From NCBI GenBank assembly GCA_903857865.1, contig CAIOGO010000018.1:23588-87587 (forward strand): DNA of 64,000 bases, given 5' to 3'. The stretch comes from an uncultured bacterium. Its GTDB lineage: Bacteria; Bipolaricaulota; Bipolaricaulia; UBA7950; UBA9294. Positions 34,268 to 42,788 of this stretch are shown piece by piece; the stretch's first letter is position 1; each line of letters begins with the position of its first letter. The translations under genes and the position numbers were made by a program. The notes below the pieces were generated by a model. That model was given only the letters and a program-made list of their open reading frames with translations, was not told the origin of the DNA and did not search any database.

Positions 34268-35527
34268 CTAGGCGCCGTGTGCGCGCGGCACGGCGCGGTG
34301 GCGGCTCACATAGAGCGCTCCGGATGGGCGAGGTGCGGTGGCTATGGGCTGACGGAACGAACGCGGGAGAGCGGCGGCCGGCGCCCTTGTCGCGAACTGC
34401 GTTTCCGGCTCGAACGTTCCGTAGTCGAAGTCCGCCAGGCGGCGGCGCTCGATTCGCGCCCCGACCGCGCGGTCGATGTCGCGGATCATGAGACCGTCGG
34501 CGGGAGAGGCCAGTGTGAATGCTTCTCCAACCTGATCTGCCCGGCCCGTGCGGCCGATGCGGTGCGTGTACGCGTCCACCGTATTGGGAACGTCGACGTT
34601 GATCACGTGTGTGATGCCCGTGACGTCGATCCCTCGTGCGGCGACATCCGTGGCAACCAGAATGTCATAGCGGCGGCCGCGGAATCCATCGATGGCGGCC
34701 TGGCGCTGGACCTGCGACATGTTCCCCTGCAAGGCAGCTGCGCGGTGTCCCGCCTTGGCCAGAATCAGCGCCAGATTGCGAGCCCGGTGCTTAGTCCTCG
34801 TGAAGATCAGGACGCGCCCGGTCGCCGTCCGCTTGAGCAGGGCGAGGAGGAGGTTCGTCTTCTGGGTCTCCGGAACTGGGTAGAGTGCGTGCGACACCGT
34901 CTTCGCCGGGGCGATGGGGTCGACCTGGACCGTCGTCGGATCGCGGAGAATGCTCTGGGCGAGGCCGCGGATGTCGTTGGGCATCGTGGCGCAGAAGAAG
35001 AGCGTCTGCCGGCGTGCGGGGACATGTCGAAGTATGCGGCGAATGTCGGGCAGGAACCCCATGTCGCACATGCGGTCCGCCTCGTCGAGCACCAGCACCT
35101 CAACGTGCAAGAGATCGATAGCGCCATCGTCAATGTGGTCGAGGAGTCGGCCCGGGCAGGCGATGACGATGTCCGCGCCCCGCCGCAGGGCGGCCAATTG
35201 CGGCCGCTTGCTCACTCCGCCGTAGATCGCGACGCTGCGCACCTTCGTGTGTCGCCCGAACGCGATCGTCGCCTGATGAATCTGCTCTGCCAGCTCGCGC
35301 GTCGGCGCAAGGATCAACGCGCGGATGCCGCCCGGCTGGCCGCGAACGAGGCGGTCGAGAATGGGGAGCATGAACGCTGCTGTCTTTCCTGTTCCTGTCT
35401 GTGCTAAGCCGAGAACGTCCCGCCGCGCGAGGACGACCGGGATGGCTTGCTCTTGGATGGGGGTCGGGGCCTGATACTCAACGCCGGAAACAACGTGCGG
35501 GTGAAGCGAGAAATGCTCGAAACTCAC
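34268..35527 (-). CDS. DEAD-box ATP-dependent RNA helicase (RhlE/DeaD-like)
   Basis: Q-motif, AQTGTGKT, PTRELA, DEAD-box (DEADRM), SAT-like, HRIGRTGR. GTG start with perfect SD AAGGAGG. Confidence 0.9.
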   Translation of the reverse strand: MSFEHFSLHPHVVSGVEYQAPTPIQEQAIPVVLARRDVLGLAQTGTGKTAAFMLPILDRLVRGQPGGIRALILAPTRELAEQIHQATIAFGRHTKVRSVAIYGGVSKRPQLAALRRGADIVIACPGRLLDHIDDGAIDLLHVEVLVLDEADRMCDMGFLPDIRRILRHVPARRQTLFFCATMPNDIRGLAQSILRDPTTVQVDPIAPAKTVSHALYPVPETQKTNLLLALLKRTATGRVLIFTRTKHRARNLALILAKAGHRAAALQGNMSQVQRQAAIDGFRGRRYDILVATDVAARGIDVTGITHVINVDVPNTVDAYTHRIGRTGRADQVGEAFTLASPADGLMIRDIDRAVGARIERRRLADFDYGTFEPETQFATRAPAAALPRSFRQPIATAPRPSGALYVSRHRAVPRAHGA

Positions 35528-35901
35528 TGAAAGTCCTCCTTGGACTATTGAGCCAAGTCGCACTCTCAGCTCGTGATGCTTTGCAATCTTTGCGGTTGAC
35601 GTATGCGATCCAGTTGCTAGCGTGATATTGGTGGGAAGTGTACCCGCTCCGCGCGAGCTTATCCAGCGGCGATCGGCTCTTGCGGCGCTGCCTGCCCGGA
35701 AACGCTCTCCAGGACGGTTGTTTCGCGCTCAATGCCGAACGGCGTTCGGCACGGGAGTCTTGGTGAAGGCGTGGCTTCTCTCCGAAGCGTCGGCACAGAC
35801 TCTTCATTTCTTGGATGTCTCCGAGGATCGAGGATAGGATGAACGTCGCTGCGTGGGCCTCGGTGGCTCGGCAGCGTCCTCAAAACTGAAAGGGGGCAAC
35901 G

Positions 35902-36783
35902 ATGCAACTCTGGGCGTGGATTCTCATCATCGCCGTTGTGGTCATCTTTCTCTCCGGGATCCGGATCGTGCGTCCGACGCACCGCGCGCTGATCGAGCGG
36001 CTGGGCAAGTACCAGCGCTTCGGTCAGGCCGGATTCCACTGGGTGATGCCGGCGATCGATCGCCTGATTCAGATCAACGTGACGGAGCAGATGGTCGACG
36101 CGCAGCCGCAAGAGATCATTACCAACGACAACCTGAACGCGCGCGTCGACGCTCAGGTCTACTTCAAGGTCAAGAACGACGAAGAGAGCGTCAAGAACTC
36201 GCAGTACAACGTCAATAGCTACCAGATCCAGATCGTGAACCTCGCGCGCACGACGTTGCGCAACATCATCGGAACCCTCACCCTGAAGTCGGCGAACAGC
36301 GAACGAGACAGGATCAACAACGAGCTCCTCTCCACGCTGTCGGCGGAGACGAAGAGCTGGGGCATGGAGATCGTCCGCACGGAGCTCAAGGAGATCGATC
36401 CGCCGAAGGACGTCCAGGAGACGATGAACAAGGTCGTCAAGGCCGAGAACGAGAAGATCGCCGCCCTCGACTATGCCAACGCGGTGGAGCGTCAGGCGGA
36501 CGGCGAGAAGCGCTCCGAGATCAAGAAGGCGGAAGGAATCAAGCAAGCGAAGATTCTCGCCGCGGAAGGCGAAGCCGAGGCCATCCGCCTCGTGAACGAA
36601 GCGGCGAACACGTACTTCGTCGGGAACGCCCAGCTTCTTCGCAAGCTGGAGACGCTCGAGAGGTCGCTGCGCGACAACGCGAAGATCGTAATCCCCGCGG
36701 GGTCCGAACTCATCAACGTGATCGGCGACCTGGCCGGAGTGACTCCGGTGCCAATGAAGCGGCCTGGGGAACAAGGGAAGTAG
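35902..36783 (+). CDS. SPFH/band-7 (stomatin/prohibitin-like) membrane protein
   Basis: N-terminal TM then the SPFH domain, then a coiled-coil Ala/Glu/Lys-rich region. RBS AAAGGGGG. Confidence 0.85.
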   Translation: MQLWAWILIIAVVVIFLSGIRIVRPTHRALIERLGKYQRFGQAGFHWVMPAIDRLIQINVTEQMVDAQPQEIITNDNLNARVDAQVYFKVKNDEESVKNSQYNVNSYQIQIVNLARTTLRNIIGTLTLKSANSERDRINNELLSTLSAETKSWGMEIVRTELKEIDPPKDVQETMNKVVKAENEKIAALDYANAVERQADGEKRSEIKKAEGIKQAKILAAEGEAEAIRLVNEAANTYFVGNAQLLRKLETLERSLRDNAKIVIPAGSELINVIGDLAGVTPVPMKRPGEQGK

Positions 36784-36886
36784 AGGTAACGGTCAGCTTG
36801 TGCAGCATGAGGAGTGCGCCCCCGGCGGGTCGCGGGGGCGCTTCCATTGATCGGCGTGAGAGGCCGTGGGCAAAGGGGATCGTGAA

Positions 36887-38170
36887 GTGAACGAACGTCT
36901 TGTCGTGCAGCAGACTCGCGGTCTGCCAGCGACGACCTGCTCGCTTGTGGCCGATCTCGAGGCTCTCGGCGTGCGCTCGGGGACGGTGCTCATCGTCCAT
37001 TCCTCGCTCAGCGCTCTGGGATGGGTCTGCGGCGGCCCTGTCGCCGTCATCGAGGCGCTGGAGAGAGTCGTGGGCTCGTCCGGCACGCTCGTGATGCCGA
37101 CGCAGACCGGCGGGCTGACCGACCCAAAGGACTGGCGTCGCCCGCCGGTTCCCGAGGAATGGAAGGACCTGATCCGCGCCTCCACGCCGGCATACGACCC
37201 GGATCGGACGCCGACTCGCGGGATGGGTGCGGTTGCCGAGACCTTCCGAACGTGGCCGGGGACGATCCGAAGCGCTCACCCGCACGCTTCGTTCGCCGCG
37301 CGGGGAGCTCGGGCAGTCGATGTCTGTGCGCATCATGCGCTCGACTTCGGGCTTGGGGAGACCTCGCCGCTCGCGCGGGTCTACGACCTTGACGGCTGGG
37401 TGCTCCTCCTCGGTGTCTGCCACACATCGAACACGTCGATCCACCTCGCCGAGTACCGCGCTCGATACCCCGGGAAGCGTGAGACCACAAGCGGCGCACC
37501 CGTTTCCGTGGGGGGAAAGCGGCTGTGGACGACAATTCGAGACGTGGACCTTTCGAGCGATGACTTCGAGGAGATCGGATCGCGTTTCGCTGAGGCGACG
37601 GGCGCCGTACGGTCGGGTCGAGTTGGAGTTGGGACCGGATTCCTGATGCCCCAACGAGCCCTTGTTGACTTAGCCGTCCGTTGGATCGAGGCGAATCGCG
37701 GGCACGAGAGCCCTCAGTGGCCGGCAGAGATACGCGCGGCGACCCACGACGACCAGGCGGAGTGGCTGCGCCTTCGCGTGGCGCTCTGGCCGGCACACGA
37801 TCGGGCGGACTCGGAGCGCGAGGTGGGCGCGATGCTCATGGAAGGCAGCCACGAGGTCGCCTTCGTCGCAGAGATCGCGCCTGGTCGTCTCTGCGGGTGG
37901 GTCGAAGTGTCGCTGCACGAGGAGGCCGAAGGGTGTAACTCGAGCCCGGTCGGCTACATCGGGGGGTGGTTTGTCGATCCTTCGCACCGCGGGCGGGGCA
38001 TCGGCCGCCGCTTGATCGAGGCCGGGGAGGCGTGGGCACGCTCTCGCGGCTGCGCGGAGATGGCCTCCGACACGACGTCGGAGTTTCCCGAGAGCCCGTC
38101 CGCGCATCGAGCGCTCGGCTACGCAGACGCAAAGATGACGTTCCACTTCCGGAAGGAGCTTCGCCCGTGA
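36887..38170 (+). CDS. Bifunctional aminoglycoside acetyltransferase fusion: N-terminal AAC(3) (Antibiotic_NAT fold, AAC(3)-IV-like) plus C-terminal AAC(6')-I-type GNAT domain
   Basis: N-domain: [25 protein letters not shown]…[11 protein letters not shown]…[11 protein letters not shown]…[17 protein letters not shown] (AAC(3)). C-domain: [10 protein letters not shown]…[29 protein letters not shown]…GCAEMASDT…HFRK (compare AAC(6')-Iy GCDSSPV…GCREMASDT…FYRK). Confidence 0.8.
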
Positions 38171-38949
38171 AGACAGCCCTTGTTCGGGGAGTCAGCTCGG
38201 CGATCGGTTCGTGCGAACTGACGCACTTCACGCGCCAGCCGATCGACGTCGCGAAGGCGGAACGACAGCATCGGGCGTACGTCGGAGCCCTGCGCGACCT
38301 CGGGTGCCGAGTTCATGAACTCCCCGCGGACCCCACGCTCCCAGACTCCGTGTTCGTCGAAGACACGGCGGTACTCGTCGATGGAGTGGCGGTGATCGCT
38401 CGCCCCGGCGCAGCCTCCCGCCGCAAGGAGATCGATGCGATCGACGCCTTCCTCAGCCTTCGCCTGCCGGTGCTCCGAATCGAGTCGCCCGGTACTCTCG
38501 ACGGGGGCGACGTCTTGCGCGTCGACCGAACCCTCTACGTCGGGACTTCGGGGCGGACGAACGCCGCGGGAATTGTGCAACTCCGCGCGGGTCTCGCTTC
38601 GTACGGCTACGAGGTCCGTGCGGTTCGGGTCTCGGGGTGTCTGCATCTCAAGTCTGCCGTGACCGAGGTTGGCGACGGACTGCTGTTGATCCAGAACGAG
38701 TGGGTCGACGCGGATGCGTTCTCCGACTGCACCTGCATCGAGGTTGATCCGCAGGAATCGCGCGCAGCCAATGCCCTGCGCGTCGGAGCCGAGATCGTCT
38801 ATCCGGCCGCCTACCCTCGGACCGCAGCTCGTCTTCGCGACAGCGGTCTGCGCGTTCGGCTGGTCGACGTGTCAGAACTCGCGAAGGCCGAGGGTGCGGT
38901 GACATGCTGCAGTCTGATCTGGGACGCAGCCGCTGTCTGCCCATCCTAG
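38167..38949 (+). CDS. DDAH/amidinotransferase-superfamily hydrolase (dimethylarginine dimethylaminohydrolase-like)
   Basis: GTG start overlapping the upstream stop (GTGA). DDAH-like motifs (…[11 protein letters not shown]…, [10 protein letters not shown]-terminal Cys region). 260 aa. Confidence 0.7.
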
Positions 38950-39117
38950 AGGGAGCCGAATGGCACGTCTCGAATGCGTCTGCCTTCCGCGAAGGGCCGT
39001 CGTCTAGCTTGTCCAGTTTCACAGTAGTGTTTGCAGTCGGCGGCAGTTGAGATCAGGGAGGGCGGCGAACGCGCGTGGCGGTCTCTCGCGCCAAGAGCGC
39101 AAAAAAAGGCAGGGTCA

Positions 39118-39178
39118 CTGTAGCGTCGCACGCGTTCGGTTCTAACGAGAGAACGAGCTGCACCTTGCGTGCGACGAT
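39118..39178. repeat. About 60-bp conserved hairpin repeat element, copy 2 (same orientation as 13608-13668), preceded by motif GTCTCTCGCGCCAAGAGCGCAAAAA
   Basis: Stem arms CGTCGCACGC/GCGTGCGACG are identical to copy 1. The loop is about 80% identical. Lies exactly at the 5' truncation point of the DUF885 pseudogene. Confidence 0.7.
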
Positions 39179-39199
39179 GGTGAATTGGGAACGACGTCG

Positions 39200-40091
39200 A
39201 ACACGGCGCAAGAGATCCACGAGATGGGTCTGCGCGAGGTCGCCCGGCTGCACGAAGAAGTCCGCGCGTGCGCTGCGGTGCTCGGCTACGCGGCGACGCA
39301 TCCATCGCCGAGCTGTTCGGATGGATCCAGCAGGACGGTGGAACTCTCTACGACGGGGATATCATGCGAGAGTACGATCGGCTGATCGAATCGGCCAAGG
39401 TGAATGCCCTCTCTTTCCTGTCCCGACTGCCGGCGACGGAGGTTGTCGTGAAGGAGGACCCCGTGGGTGGGTTCTACCAGTCCGCGCCGCGCGACGGCTC
39501 ATTGCCGGCCGCCTTTGGCGCACAGACGACCGGCGCGCAGCTGCGCTTCACCATGCCCACGCTTGCCTATCACGAGACGATTCCTGGCCACCATGTCCAG
39601 ATTGCGCTGGCTCAGGAGATGGATCTGCCGCTCCTTCTGAGCGAGACGGGCTTCCTCGGATTCAACGAGGGGTGGGCGCTCTACGCCGAACGGCTGGCCT
39701 GGGAGTTTGGCTGGTACGAGGGGGATCCCTACGGGAATCTCGGCCGACTTCAGTTCGAGCTGATGCGGGCCGCTCGCCTGGTCGTCGACACGGGAATCCA
39801 CGCGTTGGGGTGGAGCTACGAGGACGCAGCGGCCGCCTACCAGGAAGCCACGGGGCGCTCCCCTCAGCTCACCCAATCGGACATCACCGATACGCCGCCT
39901 GGCCTGGGCAAGCTGTGTCCTACCACGTCGGGTACCTTGCCCTGCTCGACCTACGAACGAGGGCGGAGACCGCACTTGGCGATCGGTTTGACCTCATGGC
40001 GTTCCACGATGCGCTCCTTTCGCTCGGCAACGCGCCGCTTGCGCTCGTCCATACCGCCGTCGCCGCGTTCATCGCCACGCAGGGAGAATGA
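39200..40091 (+). pseudogene. DUF885-family gene remnant: 5'-truncated and carrying at least two frameshifts
   Basis: Homology segments lie in two frames (EIHEMGLREVARLHEEV…; …HETIPGHHVQIALAQE…; …RYAAWPGQAVSYHVGYLALLDLRTRAETALGDRFDLMAFHDALLSLGNAPL…). There is a 1-nt deletion at SDIT|RYAAWPGQA. No N-terminal ~250 codons. Confidence 0.7.
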
Positions 40092-40300
40092 GCGGTGGAA
40101 GCGCCGCGGGGTATGTCGTAGAGTTGCGAGTTGCTGGGACCTAGTTGCAGACGTGCCTCCGCTGGATCGCGTGGGGTGTTGGGTCGACCCCTTGGTCGAG
40201 GGGCGCCTGCCCCGTCGACTTGTGTGGATGCGGCCAGCCGTGAGCGGCTGGGGCGCAGGAGTCCAGGGCACGAACATGGCGCGCAAAGAGGAGTCTCGGC

Positions 40301-42046
40301 GTGACGAAGAATCATGTACCGCGCTGGATCTGGCCGTGCGCTCCCGCTGCGCGCGTTGCGATGGTGCTCGCCTTGGTGGTCTTCCTCGGCGCGTGTTCCG
40401 CCCCTCCGCAGCCGATGTCATCTTGGGTCCCGCCCTCGCTCGCCGACGTCCAGGCTGAGCTTCATGGCGCCTCGTTCGACGGCTTCGTGACATCGTCCTG
40501 TCGGCTCTACCTCCTTCGTTTCCCTCAAGTCGTTGCGCAGCTCGGTGTGGCCGAGACCCTGGGGATCCGAAACGATCGGCTCAATGACTACTCCGTGGCC
40601 TACGACCGCGAGACGGCCGCCATCGAGGGCTACTTCCTCGATCGGCTCCAGTCGTTCGATCGGGAGGCCCTTGCGCCCGCGCAGCGTGCAGCCTACGACA
40701 CCTGCCAGTGGATGTGGACGCGCAGCGCGGCACGCCGTGCGCTCGGGTTTTCGGGATACGCAGTGGACTCGACGATGGCCTCACCCGACGTCCGATTGTC
40801 CCGCCTCTTCACGACCGACCTGCCCTTAGGCGATGAGTCGGATCTTGCCGACTACCTGGCGTGCCTCCGGCAGGCTACGGCTCAGATCCGGGAGATCGAG
40901 CTGCACGTCGATGCCGAGGATAAGCGCGGGATCGTGCCGCCGGATGGGGTTCTGGCGGCGGAACTCGCGATGCTGTCTCTCGTGAGGATTCGTCACACAG
41001 ACTCTCGCGACCAAATTGGCCTGTTTCAGAAGATCAGTGGGACCTCTCACCCGTTCTACCTGAGGATGCGGGACTTGGCTTCCAGCATGCCCGCCTTGCC
41101 GCGTGAGAAGCGGAGCGAGATCATGGTTGCGGCTCGCGAGGAGATCGAGCAAAGGATCATCCCGGCATTCGAACGGCTGTACAACACCGTGGCGCACCGC
41201 CTGTCCGAGATTCCGACAGACGCTGTGGGGATCGGTCCCCTGTTCGGCGCGGATGCAGCGTACGCCGAGCTCCTGCGCCAGGCTTCGGGCACGCTCCTTC
41301 GCTCCGACGACGTGCATCGACTGGCTCAGGCGCATGTCGAACGCGCACGCCTGGACATCGACAAGGTCAGCACGTCCCTGGGTATCCGCGCCGGGACGCC
41401 GCTCGCGTCGCTCTTCCTGTACCTGCAGAGCGAGGACGGTGAGCCCGACGCCGAGTCCGATGGCGAGCCCGACGTGGCCGACGTCCCGGCGCCGACGCGC
41501 GGATTCCCGATGTCGCGCGCGCAGCCGACGATTCTTCCGTTTGGCGTGGGGGTTGACGACGGGGATGGCGTGCCGTGGGGTCTGGCCGCCTCCGACCCGT
41601 TCTATGGGTTCATGGCGGGCTGCAAGCTCTACCTGGCGCAGGTGGCCTGGGAGGAGCGACAGGCTGGCATGGGATCCGCACGGAGTGCGCTTGCGGCGCT
41701 TCTGGAGCAGTATCAGGCTGCGGTGGCTGCCGTAGTCGATACAGGCATTCACGCGCTGGGATGGGGTCTGCGCACTGCGACCACATACTATCAAGATACC
41801 CTAGGTCTGGCCCCGTTCGAGGCTCGCTACGAGGTTTCGCGCCTCGCGGCGGCGCCCGGGCTGGCGGCAGGCCGATACGCCGCGTACTGCCGGATCGTGG
41901 AACTGCGAGCGAGAGCGCAGGAAGCGGCGGGCGACGAGTACCTGCCGGAGCGATTCCATGACTGGCTGCTCGAGTACGGAGCGAGGCCCCTAGAGACCCT
42001 GGATGACCCGACGCCAGGAGACCTGAGAAACGCGGCCGGCTCCTGA
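40301..42046 (+). CDS. DUF885-family lipoprotein (intact paralog of the upstream pseudogene)
   Basis: Signal peptide plus lipobox (LVVFLGACS). Full-length 581 aa with the DUF885 C-terminal region (…VDTGIHALGW…). Confidence 0.8.
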   Translation: MTKNHVPRWIWPCAPAARVAMVLALVVFLGACSAPPQPMSSWVPPSLADVQAELHGASFDGFVTSSCRLYLLRFPQVVAQLGVAETLGIRNDRLNDYSVAYDRETAAIEGYFLDRLQSFDREALAPAQRAAYDTCQWMWTRSAARRALGFSGYAVDSTMASPDVRLSRLFTTDLPLGDESDLADYLACLRQATAQIREIELHVDAEDKRGIVPPDGVLAAELAMLSLVRIRHTDSRDQIGLFQKISGTSHPFYLRMRDLASSMPALPREKRSEIMVAAREEIEQRIIPAFERLYNTVAHRLSEIPTDAVGIGPLFGADAAYAELLRQASGTLLRSDDVHRLAQAHVERARLDIDKVSTSLGIRAGTPLASLFLYLQSEDGEPDAESDGEPDVADVPAPTRGFPMSRAQPTILPFGVGVDDGDGVPWGLAASDPFYGFMAGCKLYLAQVAWEERQAGMGSARSALAALLEQYQAAVAAVVDTGIHALGWGLRTATTYYQDTLGLAPFEARYEVSRLAAAPGLAAGRYAAYCRIVELRARAQEAAGDEYLPERFHDWLLEYGARPLETLDDPTPGDLRNAAGS

Positions 42047-42056
42047 GCCGCCGTTT

Positions 42057-42788
42057 CTAGCGTTGCGCGTCGACGTGCTTCCGCCAGAGAGCCAGCGCGT
42101 GCGCACGTGGGTCGACGACCTCGACGCCCGCCTCGGCGAAGAACGCGTTCGTGTTGACGAGGTCGCGCACGAGGAGTTCGAGCGCGTCGTCGTTGTACCG
42201 CGGATCCACGGCCTGCGGGAAGTCGATGATCGTGACCGCTCCCTTCCAGAAGAGCATGTTGTAGGGTGACAGGTCCGCGTGGACGCGGTGATGGACGAGG
42301 AAGAGGTCCACGTTCTCGAGGATTCGTGCGTAGATGCGGCGGGCCTCCTCTAGGTCCAACGGGACGCCGACGAGGACGGGCGCCGGGGTCTCGATGTCGC
42401 CGAGGTACTCCATCAGGATGACCGGCCCAACGCGCTCGATGGGGTATGGGACATCCGCGCCGGCCGCGTGGAGCATCTCGAGTGTCTTCATCTCGTGGCT
42501 GATCCAGGCGCTGAACTTGTGCGTCCGCCCGTGCTGCGTCTTCTTCCCGAGGGCGCGGAGGACGCGGGCGTCGGGACGAGCGCCGCGGGATCGGCCCTGC
42601 TGATAGATGGCGTCCCGCTTGAAGCTTCTCATCTCCAGCGGGCGATAGACCTTAGCCGCGATGAGGTCCCGATCGAGCGATGGGTGCGCGTGGCAGCAGT
42701 AGACCACGGCCTCTTTGCCACTCTTGATCGGTCGGATCACGTCGAGGAGCAGATGCTCCTCGATCAACGGAGCGAGGTGTTGGAGCAA
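42057..42788 (-). CDS. RIO-type atypical serine protein kinase (RIO1/Kdo-kinase-like)
   Basis: …SGKEAVVYCC…AAKVYRP… (ATP-binding Lys), catalytic loop VHADLSPYNML, metal-binding IDFPQAV. The only available in-frame start is TTG. Confidence 0.75.
   Translation of the reverse strand: MLQHLAPLIEEHLLLDVIRPIKSGKEAVVYCCHAHPSLDRDLIAAKVYRPLEMRSFKRDAIYQQGRSRGARPDARVLRALGKKTQHGRTHKFSAWISHEMKTLEMLHAAGADVPYPIERVGPVILMEYLGDIETPAPVLVGVPLDLEEARRIYARILENVDLFLVHHRVHADLSPYNMLFWKGAVTIIDFPQAVDPRYNDDALELLVRDLVNTNAFFAEAGVEVVDPRAHALALWRKHVDAQR

Follow-up and report, generated by a model that had tools for sequence, protein, structure and literature searches.

What does a protein acetylate when it carries two different acetyltransferase folds on one chain, and does the gene behind it share its task? 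These questions are raised by a locus on contig CAIOGO010000018.1 of an uncultured Bipolaricaulota bacterium, of which a stretch of 64,000 nucleotides was analyzed as a whole (hereafter, the window). One open reading frame (ORF) of this window encodes 427 amino acids and joins an Antibiotic_NAT domain to a GNAT domain; an overlapping gene of the DDAH family follows. An earlier reading of the DNA letters (hereafter, the original prediction) saw in the ORF a natural fusion of the aminoglycoside acetyltransferases AAC(3) and AAC(6') and, in the gene pair, a two-step aminoglycoside-modifying module. The comparisons reported here favor another answer. The fusion is probably a chromosomal, vertically inherited and dispensable two-headed acetyl-CoA-dependent N-acetyltransferase of Candidatus Bipolaricaulota, from which the DDAH gene is functionally separable. 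Its N-terminal half would acetylate a small molecule at a primary amine, and this substrate is probably no classical aminoglycoside; the C-terminal half of most family members seems to possess all that is expected of an aminoglycoside or amino-sugar 6'-N-acetyltransferase. The two active sites would work independently, giving two detoxifying or modifying activities in one protein rather than two consecutive steps. The elements of the fusion are the following.

36887..38170, + strand: fusion ORF encoding a two-domain N-acetyltransferase of 427 amino acids (ORF list, sequence, Pfam and NCBIfam matches, homologues, AlphaFold2 model)
36992..37690, + strand: Antibiotic_NAT domain of the YokD/BA2930/FrbF type (PF02522, 302.6 bits; structure matches; Foldseek)
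37430..37456, + strand: NTSIHLAEY, with the catalytic motif and the dyad His186/Glu189 (motif as in PMC8956665; conservation in 57 fusions)
37697..37726, + strand: inter-domain linker of about 10 residues (variable sequence and conserved length in the alignment; low model confidence)
37727..38167, + strand: C-terminal GNAT domain of the AAC(6')-Iy/Ig/Ih type (NF043067; PDB entries 1s3z, 4e8o and 4evy)
37961..37963, + strand: codon GGG for Gly359, where the family has Glu (alignment of 57 fusions; comparison with AAC(6')-Iy, -Ih and -Ig)

Judging from homologous ORFs, an Antibiotic_NAT fold and an AAC(6')-I-like GNAT fold are genuinely fused in one polypeptide. In a search space of 5.8 billion proteins, 56 other full-length two-domain clusters (at 90% identity) were found, which are 52-96% identical to the window protein and were drawn from JGI, ENA, NCBI and Logan assemblies; the organism labels seen for them are all Bipolaricaulota or "Thermotogota" metagenome-assembled genomes (MAGs). 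A more distant clade, 42% identical (P0178), has the same uninterrupted two-domain ORF. That a frameshift or an assembly error fused two separate genes, an eventuality already considered by the original prediction, can practically be dismissed, since the ORF is common to independent assemblies and is uninterrupted, with a linker of constant length, in all 56 clusters. In an alignment of the window protein with these clusters (57 sequences, used for all conservation counts below), pairs of sequences are on average 67% identical in the N-domain and 59% in the C-domain, and the linker comprises 11-13 variable residues in 56 of the 57 fusions, the exception being an 18-residue insertion in P0053. 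The AlphaFold2 model built on this alignment displays two well-folded domains joined via a low-confidence linker, with a mean predicted local distance difference test score (pLDDT) of 90.6 and a predicted template modeling score (pTM) of 0.71. Its sole weak block is the linker, amino acids 271-280 (pLDDT 64).

The ORF can also be read from an upstream, alternative GTG (36866..38170, + strand, 434 amino acids). GTG 36887, preceded by AAGGGGA, was taken as the start because the resulting 427 amino acids fit the length of most fusion homologues (423-428 amino acids). On the 434-residue form, Pfam recognizes Antibiotic_NAT at amino acids 43-275 (302.6 bits, E 2.4e-90) followed by Acetyltransf_1, a GNAT family, at amino acids 307-418 (58.9 bits, E 7.4e-16). 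With these matches and the 56 other clusters, the two-domain composition first described for the 427-residue ORF is borne out, and the protein strings quoted at the time, including HFRK, are present.

Split-gene ancestors, that is, a standalone Antibiotic_NAT gene at the same locus or beside a GNAT gene, were sought, and neither P0057 nor P0069 qualifies. P0057, the closest standalone homologue of the N-domain (75% identity, 282 amino acids), lies in a different context without an adjacent GNAT gene, and P0069, a standalone Antibiotic_NAT protein at another Bipolaricaulota locus, has no adjacent GNAT gene either. Beside P0057 (L020:1-10880), a QatB/QueC-like pair is encoded, together with a KAP NTPase, a zeta toxin and a ParD-like protein. 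This is a setting of defence and toxin-antitoxin functions and not the syntenic Bipolaricaulota locus. Standalone homologues of the C-domain occur in metagenomes as proteins of 146-160 amino acids with 44-54% identity and the JGI label AAC(6')-I; two of them, P0135 and P0136, sit in unrelated contexts.

The N-terminal half matches PF02522 over the complete model (302.6 bits, the gathering threshold being 25; positions 1-232 of 232). Among solved structures, it is closest to FrbF from S. rubellomurinus (3sma, E 4e-80), BA2930 from B. anthracis (3ijw/3e4f, E 1.4e-77) and YokD from B. subtilis (2nyg, E 1.3e-69), with which it shares full-length likeness and the same TxΦHΦAE motif. True AAC(3)-III, -X, -II and -VI enzymes come after, at E 7e-42 to 4e-31, and AAC(3)-IVa is the weakest of the solved AAC(3) structures, with a partial alignment (amino acids 19-196, E 9e-25). 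FrbF is about 55% identical to the N-domain by phmmer and 53% by Foldseek; BA2930 and YokD are 45-47% identical to it. When the AlphaFold2 model was compared by Foldseek, template modeling scores of 0.94-0.96 and root-mean-square deviations of about 1.5 Å were obtained for BA2930, YokD and FrbF (45-53% identity). The AAC(3)-II, -III, -IV, -VI and -X enzymes share the fold and the catalytic His/Glu dyad with the N-domain but are only 33-37% identical to it in Foldseek. From these E-values, identities (45-55% versus 33-37%) and template modeling scores, the N-half was placed with FrbF, BA2930 and YokD.

The original prediction had considered AAC(3)-IV as the closest pattern, which has to be abandoned. 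The NCBIfam model AAC_3_IV (NF033081) gives 130.3 bits, in two stretches, against a cut-off of 420, and ranks behind AAC_3 (204 bits) and AAC_3_VIII (166 bits). The AAC_3 equivalog itself (NF033082) gives 204.2 bits, under its cut-off of 270. The closest characterized relatives, FrbF, YokD and BA2930, were described as having no aminoglycoside activity and serve as an outgroup (Stogios et al., 2022; PMC8956665). In the same study, the catalytic motif of the Antibiotic_NAT family was defined as TxΦHΦAE with a His/Glu dyad (PMC8956665). This motif is found as TSIHLAE at amino acids 183-189; S184, H186, L187, A188 and E189 do not vary among the 57 fusions, and Ser replaces the motif Thr in seven. 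By its motif and its relatives, the N-half is an Antibiotic_NAT enzyme with an intact catalytic dyad, from a subgroup reported to be inactive on aminoglycosides. FrbF, BA2930 and YokD are single-domain proteins, unlike the window protein with its additional C-terminal GNAT domain. From the title of its structure entry, FrbF belongs to phosphonate antibiotic biosynthesis; there is no such gene cluster at the window locus.

For the C-terminal half, the best NCBIfam model is NF043067 (AAC_6p_group_E), matched over positions 2-140 of 140 with 116.8 bits (E 6.4e-34), which is under the 140 bits of the curated cut-off; the models for specific AAC(6') enzymes all score far under theirs. As originally stated, this half aligns with AAC(6')-Iy: the alignment runs end to end (1s3z, E 3.6e-25), as it does with AAC(6')-Ih and AAC(6')-Ig (4e8o, E 6e-18; 4evy, E 1.7e-16). 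The C-domain shares GC(D/N)SSPV, GC(R/A)EMASDT, (F/Y)RK and the acetyl-CoA loop with the Salmonella enzyme AAC(6')-Iy and the Acinetobacter enzymes AAC(6')-Ig and -Ih. The acetyl-CoA loop (R/Q-x-x-G-x-G/A) is present as HRGRGIGRR and the Asp of MASDT within GCAEMASDT. Both the RGxGIG acetyl-CoA motif and this Asp are conserved, G373, D395 and T396 being invariant in the fusion family. The domain is modeled with a pLDDT of 81-95. The domain searches that the original prediction had suggested as a check thus bear out the two folds, Antibiotic_NAT and GNAT, but not membership of the AAC families themselves, whose cut-offs are missed (204 versus 270 and 116.8 versus 140 bits).

A particular feature of the window protein is found at position 359. 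Of the 56 other fusion clusters, 55 have Glu here, and Gly occurs only in the window and in P0001, which is 96% identical to it; this is one of only three sites where the window protein departs from a residue at least 93% conserved in the family. The corresponding Glu belongs to the "FLEG" motif common to AAC(6')-Iy, -Ih and -Ig. These enzymes stand alone and keep the Glu, whereas the window C-domain is fused behind another enzyme and has Gly instead. GNATs typically use a Glu/Tyr pair (PMC8956665), to which this Glu might belong. Literature searches on the role of Glu79 in AAC(6')-Iy retrieved nothing. With Gly at a family-invariant Glu position (E359G), the window's own C-half is flagged as possibly weakened or retuned.

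Two aminoglycoside-type domains on one chain invite comparison with known bifunctional enzymes. AAC(3)-Ib/AAC(6')-Ib', the known bifunctional fusion, consists of two GNAT folds and arose from integron cassettes in clinical bacteria. The window protein resembles it in having two acetyltransferase domains per polypeptide, but it combines Antibiotic_NAT with GNAT, lies in a syntenic chromosomal block of an uncultivated phylum and is at most a putative resistance enzyme. The original prediction was right to set this architecture apart from that of bifunctional AAC(3)/AAC(6') enzymes with two GNATs, AAC(3)-Ia and AAC(3)-Ib having the GNAT fold (PMC12378234). Taken singly, both domains are new members of known families; it is their combination that differs from characterized bifunctional AACs.

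By analogy with AAC(3)-Ib/AAC(6')-Ib', the protein might be a true bifunctional aminoglycoside-resistance enzyme, whose N-half would acetylate the 3-amine and whose C-half the 6'-amine, on the same or on different aminoglycosides, thereby broadening the spectrum. In favor of this possibility, the best NCBIfam models of both halves are aminoglycoside acetyltransferases, both folds have their catalytic motifs, the C-half comes near its cut-off (116.8 versus 140 bits, the distant fusion P0178 reaching 131) and environmental Antibiotic_NAT enzymes frequently give resistance (PMC8956665). It is, however, unlikely. The N-half groups with the reportedly aminoglycoside-inactive FrbF, BA2930 and YokD and remains under the AAC_3 cut-off, the C-half of the window has E359G at a family-invariant acidic position, and the gene is chromosomal, syntenic and lost in a close relative (metagenome contig L029, see below). 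In addition, the N-domain is fused elsewhere to many partners unrelated to aminoglycosides. If both halves were nevertheless active on aminoglycosides, the family would represent a new structural route to bifunctional resistance and an environmental reservoir of it. Isoelectric points, which could indirectly reveal an acidic pocket for aminoglycosides, do not discriminate: those of the window halves are 6.6 and 5.3, and the ranges in the fusion family overlap those of FrbF, BA2930 and AAC(6')-Iy.

Fusions of the YokD-type domain with other partners bear directly on how the two halves may work together. When 1.84 billion representatives (50% identity) were scanned with HMMER without filters, the Bipolaricaulota family collapsed to a single one of them, and a YokD-type Antibiotic_NAT domain turned up in numerous other multidomain proteins. 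Twenty long ones were scanned against Pfam, and 12 of these consist of an N-terminal Antibiotic_NAT domain and a C-terminal GNAT domain. The GNAT of P0178 is AAC(6')-like (131 bits versus the cut-off of 140) and keeps the FLEG Glu; that of P0184 resembles arsinothricin and phosphinothricin acetyltransferases (ArsN1/PAT-like); that of P0259 has a weak, sub-threshold RimI-like match. Seven further proteins of this architecture have no specific GNAT match in NCBIfam, and P0301 and P0305 have a Pfam GNAT match only. Other partners are a methyltransferase (P0176 and P0108), a beta-lactamase-family domain (P0273, 691 amino acids), an N-terminal flavin reductase (P0179), FmdE (P0182) and a zinc ribbon (P0189). 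Antibiotic_NAT followed by a C-terminal GNAT is a recurrent architecture, frequent in sequence databases and annotated there in generic terms only. Literature searches retrieved no description of an Antibiotic_NAT-GNAT fusion, enzyme names containing parentheses not being usable as search terms.

Since the YokD-type domain is joined elsewhere to unrelated GNATs, methyltransferases, beta-lactamase-family domains, a flavin reductase and FmdE, the two activities of the Bipolaricaulota fusion are proposed to be independent. The GNAT is C-terminal in all the Antibiotic_NAT-GNAT fusions scanned. AAC(6')-Iy forms a dimer by swapping C-terminal strands (PMC12378234), and the placement of the GNAT would leave the C-terminus free for a strand swap of this type. 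The recurrent fusion to detoxification-type partners suggests a role of the YokD-type domain on xenobiotic amines. The more realistic value of the family may lie in the handle that it offers on what Antibiotic_NAT enzymes of the YokD/BA2930/FrbF type do. A bolder idea is that, at least in the 55 clusters keeping Glu359, the fusion represents the first natural aminoglycoside acetyltransferase (3-N and 6'-N) made of Antibiotic_NAT and GNAT, within a wider class of multi-drug detoxification fusions; we hold this for rather unlikely. Among the partners in such a class would be GNATs of the AAC(6')-like and PAT/ArsN1-like kinds as well as methyltransferases and beta-lactamase-family domains.

We now turn to the gene that follows the fusion, and to a deletion that affects the fusion in a related genome.

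38167..38949, + strand: gene of a DDAH-family (pentein) hydrolase of 260 amino acids (sequence; NF045660; Pfam ADI and DDAH_eukar; 3rhy)
36849..38098, no strand assigned: segment of 1,250 bp missing from metagenome contig L029 (blastn, tblastn)

As described in the original prediction, this gene starts in a GTGA overlap, its GTG at 38167 overlapping the TGA stop of the fusion at 38168-38170. Its Shine-Dalgarno sequence, GGAAGGAG, lies at 38151-38158, within the last codons of the fusion. From this arrangement, the two genes are operonic, co-transcribed and probably translationally coupled. The encoded protein had been assigned to the DDAH/amidinotransferase fold, of which the DDAH part stands. 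It matches the NCBIfam dimethylargininase model NF045660 along nearly all its length (positions 2-247 of 249, 241.8 bits, E 9.4e-72), under the equivalog cut-off of 340 bits, and P. aeruginosa DDAH (PaDDAH; 3rhy) over amino acids 26-250 (E 7.9e-46). No amidinotransferase model of Pfam or NCBIfam was matched at E <= 0.01; the families matched at this threshold are ADI, DDAH, arginine deiminase and arginine dihydrolase, with one chance-level match to EccE. The curated equivalog cut-offs for AAC(3), AAC(6') and DDAH are thus all three missed at this locus.

The active site of PaDDAH (1h70, 3rhy) is retained in the downstream gene product. Cys247 aligns with a Ser of the 1h70 chain, which we take to be the C249S active-site mutant of PaDDAH, and His160 of LHLK and the Asp of LDGGD also align with PaDDAH. 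The His of LHLK and the acidic residue of GT(V/L)(E/D)xGD are presumably active-site residues of DDAH. The motifs DSVFVED, RPGAxSRR and RTN are identical to those of PaDDAH in the alignment. Since these motifs presumably bind the alpha-carboxylate and the alpha-amine of free arginine derivatives, the substrate is argued to be an amino acid. By these comparisons, the downstream gene is homologous to P. aeruginosa DDAH over its full length and does not encode an amidinotransferase; its product would be an ordinary hydrolase of free (methyl)arginine-like amino acids, retained in the operon by descent in some lineages.

The distribution of the two genes makes it possible to evaluate the two-step module, in which the DDAH-like enzyme would remove or alter the guanidino group of one antibiotic, for example streptomycin or a different aminoglycoside or nucleoside with a guanidino or amidino group, and the acetyltransferases would cap its amines. 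The DDAH gene adjoins the fusion with an identical 4-nt overlap in the window, in L002-L005 and in L025/26, and the GTGA overlap together with the Shine-Dalgarno sequence in the 3' end of the fusion is kept in these loci. It is absent beside the fusion in L001, L021/22, L023 and L027/28, that is, in four of the ten distinct fusion loci with a readable downstream side. In a neighbor-joining tree of the fusions rooted on P0178, loci with and without the DDAH gene are interleaved, which suggests that the adjacency is ancestral to the clade and was lost several times independently. The gene after the distant fusion P0178 is not a DDAH gene, as far as 43 residues allow to judge. Moreover, 79 other DDAH loci were retrieved (52-61% identity), whose flanks contain neither an Antibiotic_NAT nor an AAC(6')-like gene.

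The converse loss is observed in L029. In blastn, this contig matches window positions 34891-36848 at 95% and then directly 38099-38982 at 90%. The deletion removes the whole fusion except for its last 72 nt, and the remnant retains the Shine-Dalgarno sequence and the start codon of the DDAH gene. In tblastn, the flanking DEAD and SPFH genes are 99% identical and the DDAH gene 90%. The contig (L029:1-5811, compared with window 34891-42500) represents a natural knock-out of the fusion with the DDAH gene kept; it also lacks window positions 38983-39665. Because each gene has been lost without the other, the fusion and the DDAH gene are regarded as separable; genes of one operon can remain functionally separable even when they overlap by 4 nt.

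The two-step module is thus opposed by the loss of the DDAH gene at four of ten readable loci and its retention in L029, by its lack of linkage to such acetyltransferase genes at the 79 other loci, by its apparent absence beside P0178, and by a protein that matches dimethylargininases along its whole length, matches no amidinotransferase family and carries, identical to PaDDAH, motifs that presumably bind amino acids. In its favor are the conserved overlap with its Shine-Dalgarno sequence and the apparently ancestral adjacency. On balance, we consider the two-step module to be very improbable, and a DDAH-coupled aminoglycoside module is the least supported element of the original prediction.

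The surroundings of the fusion are those of a chromosomal gene. The genome-collection matches that carry it are Candidatus Bipolaricaulota MAGs, two of them labeled Thermotogota or Thermotogae. These two (L002 and L006) have the gene order of the Bipolaricaulota MAGs, with flanking proteins 71-91% identical to those of the window, and their labels are probably inconsistent. The recurring order across MAGs is FabI, DEAD-box helicase (- strand), Band_7, fusion, DDAH gene where present, further genes, DUF885 and RIO1. Because this order is shared across Bipolaricaulota MAGs and the fusion ORF has a G+C content at third codon positions of 0.78, like its neighbors, the fusion is considered chromosomal and vertically inherited. 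A recent horizontal transfer was considered and is not supported, given the same composition and conserved synteny. No tRNA gene was found in the window; other mobility markers were not looked for.

A housekeeping function could account for such a setting. The substrate of one or both halves would then be an amine made by the cell itself, for example a polyamine, an amino sugar of the cell envelope or an amino acid such as a derivative of citrulline, ornithine or arginine, and the DDAH gene would reflect a loose connection with the metabolism of nitrogen or arginine. The conserved chromosomal core neighborhood and the apparently ancestral co-transcription with the DDAH gene are consistent with this, and non-resistance roles have been argued for the chromosomal AAC(6')-Iy and AAC(2')-Ia. 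It should, however, be noted that the fusion is cleanly deleted in L029, a relative whose aligned flanks are 90-95% identical, and that it is found in only part of the phylum, so that it is not essential. No metabolic pathway genes are linked to it, and in L025 the accessory GNATs, NUDIX hydrolase and methyltransferase in its vicinity resemble a detoxification cluster. We regard an endogenous substrate as quite improbable. The loss in L029, where the DDAH gene was kept, is also the reason why the fusion is called dispensable in the explanation that we favor, namely a vertically inherited two-headed N-acetyltransferase acting independently of the DDAH gene.

Several points weigh against the explanation that we favor. 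Placement of the N-half in the YokD subfamily is no proof that aminoglycoside activity is missing, and the inactivity of YokD, BA2930 and FrbF is taken from the summary given in one paper (PMC8956665). The substrates proposed for both halves, the independence of the two sites and the effect of E359G are predictions; what the data show directly is the architecture, the placement in subfamilies, the conservation of motifs, the synteny and the pattern of presence and absence. The role attributed to Glu359 is drawn from the alignment and from general GNAT mechanisms, and the searched literature gave no confirmation. With its pTM of 0.71, the AlphaFold2 model may indicate that the two domains prefer one mutual orientation, in which case the two sites could cooperate. 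Finally, the 4-nt overlap is kept in every DDAH-bearing locus across 56-67% identity. This conservation exceeds that of a random neighbor, and the two genes could share a physiological role.

A caution for resistome surveys can be added. The label "aminoglycoside 3-N-acetyltransferase" on proteins of this kind denotes fold-level similarity under the curated cut-offs.

Some minor observations concern the DNA around the two genes. Between the Band_7 stop and the fusion start, at 36816-36841, lies a 9-bp all-G/C inverted repeat (GCGCCCCCG, an 8-nt loop, CGGGGGCGC); no T-run comes after it, and it is kept in L029 just before the deletion junction. A scan of 35600-39400 for promoter and terminator consensus sequences returned nothing, and searches for Rfam families and tandem repeats across the window gave nothing relevant. 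After the DDAH gene, positions 39268-39890 (+ strand) encode only about 207 amino acids, which correspond to the C-terminal third of the full-length DUF885 protein of L001 (77% identity). The N-terminal two thirds of DUF885 are missing, and the segment looks like a decayed gene remnant. A complete DUF885 paralogue of 581 amino acids is encoded at 40301-42046 (+ strand), and the hypothetical protein and PCMT-like methyltransferase that other MAGs have at this place are absent. In the P0053 lineage (L025:600-8105), three further GNATs, a NUDIX hydrolase and a methyltransferase are encoded upstream of the fusion and DDAH genes, a neighborhood that looks like an accessory acetyltransferase cluster, and a DUF2007 gene overlaps the start of the fusion.

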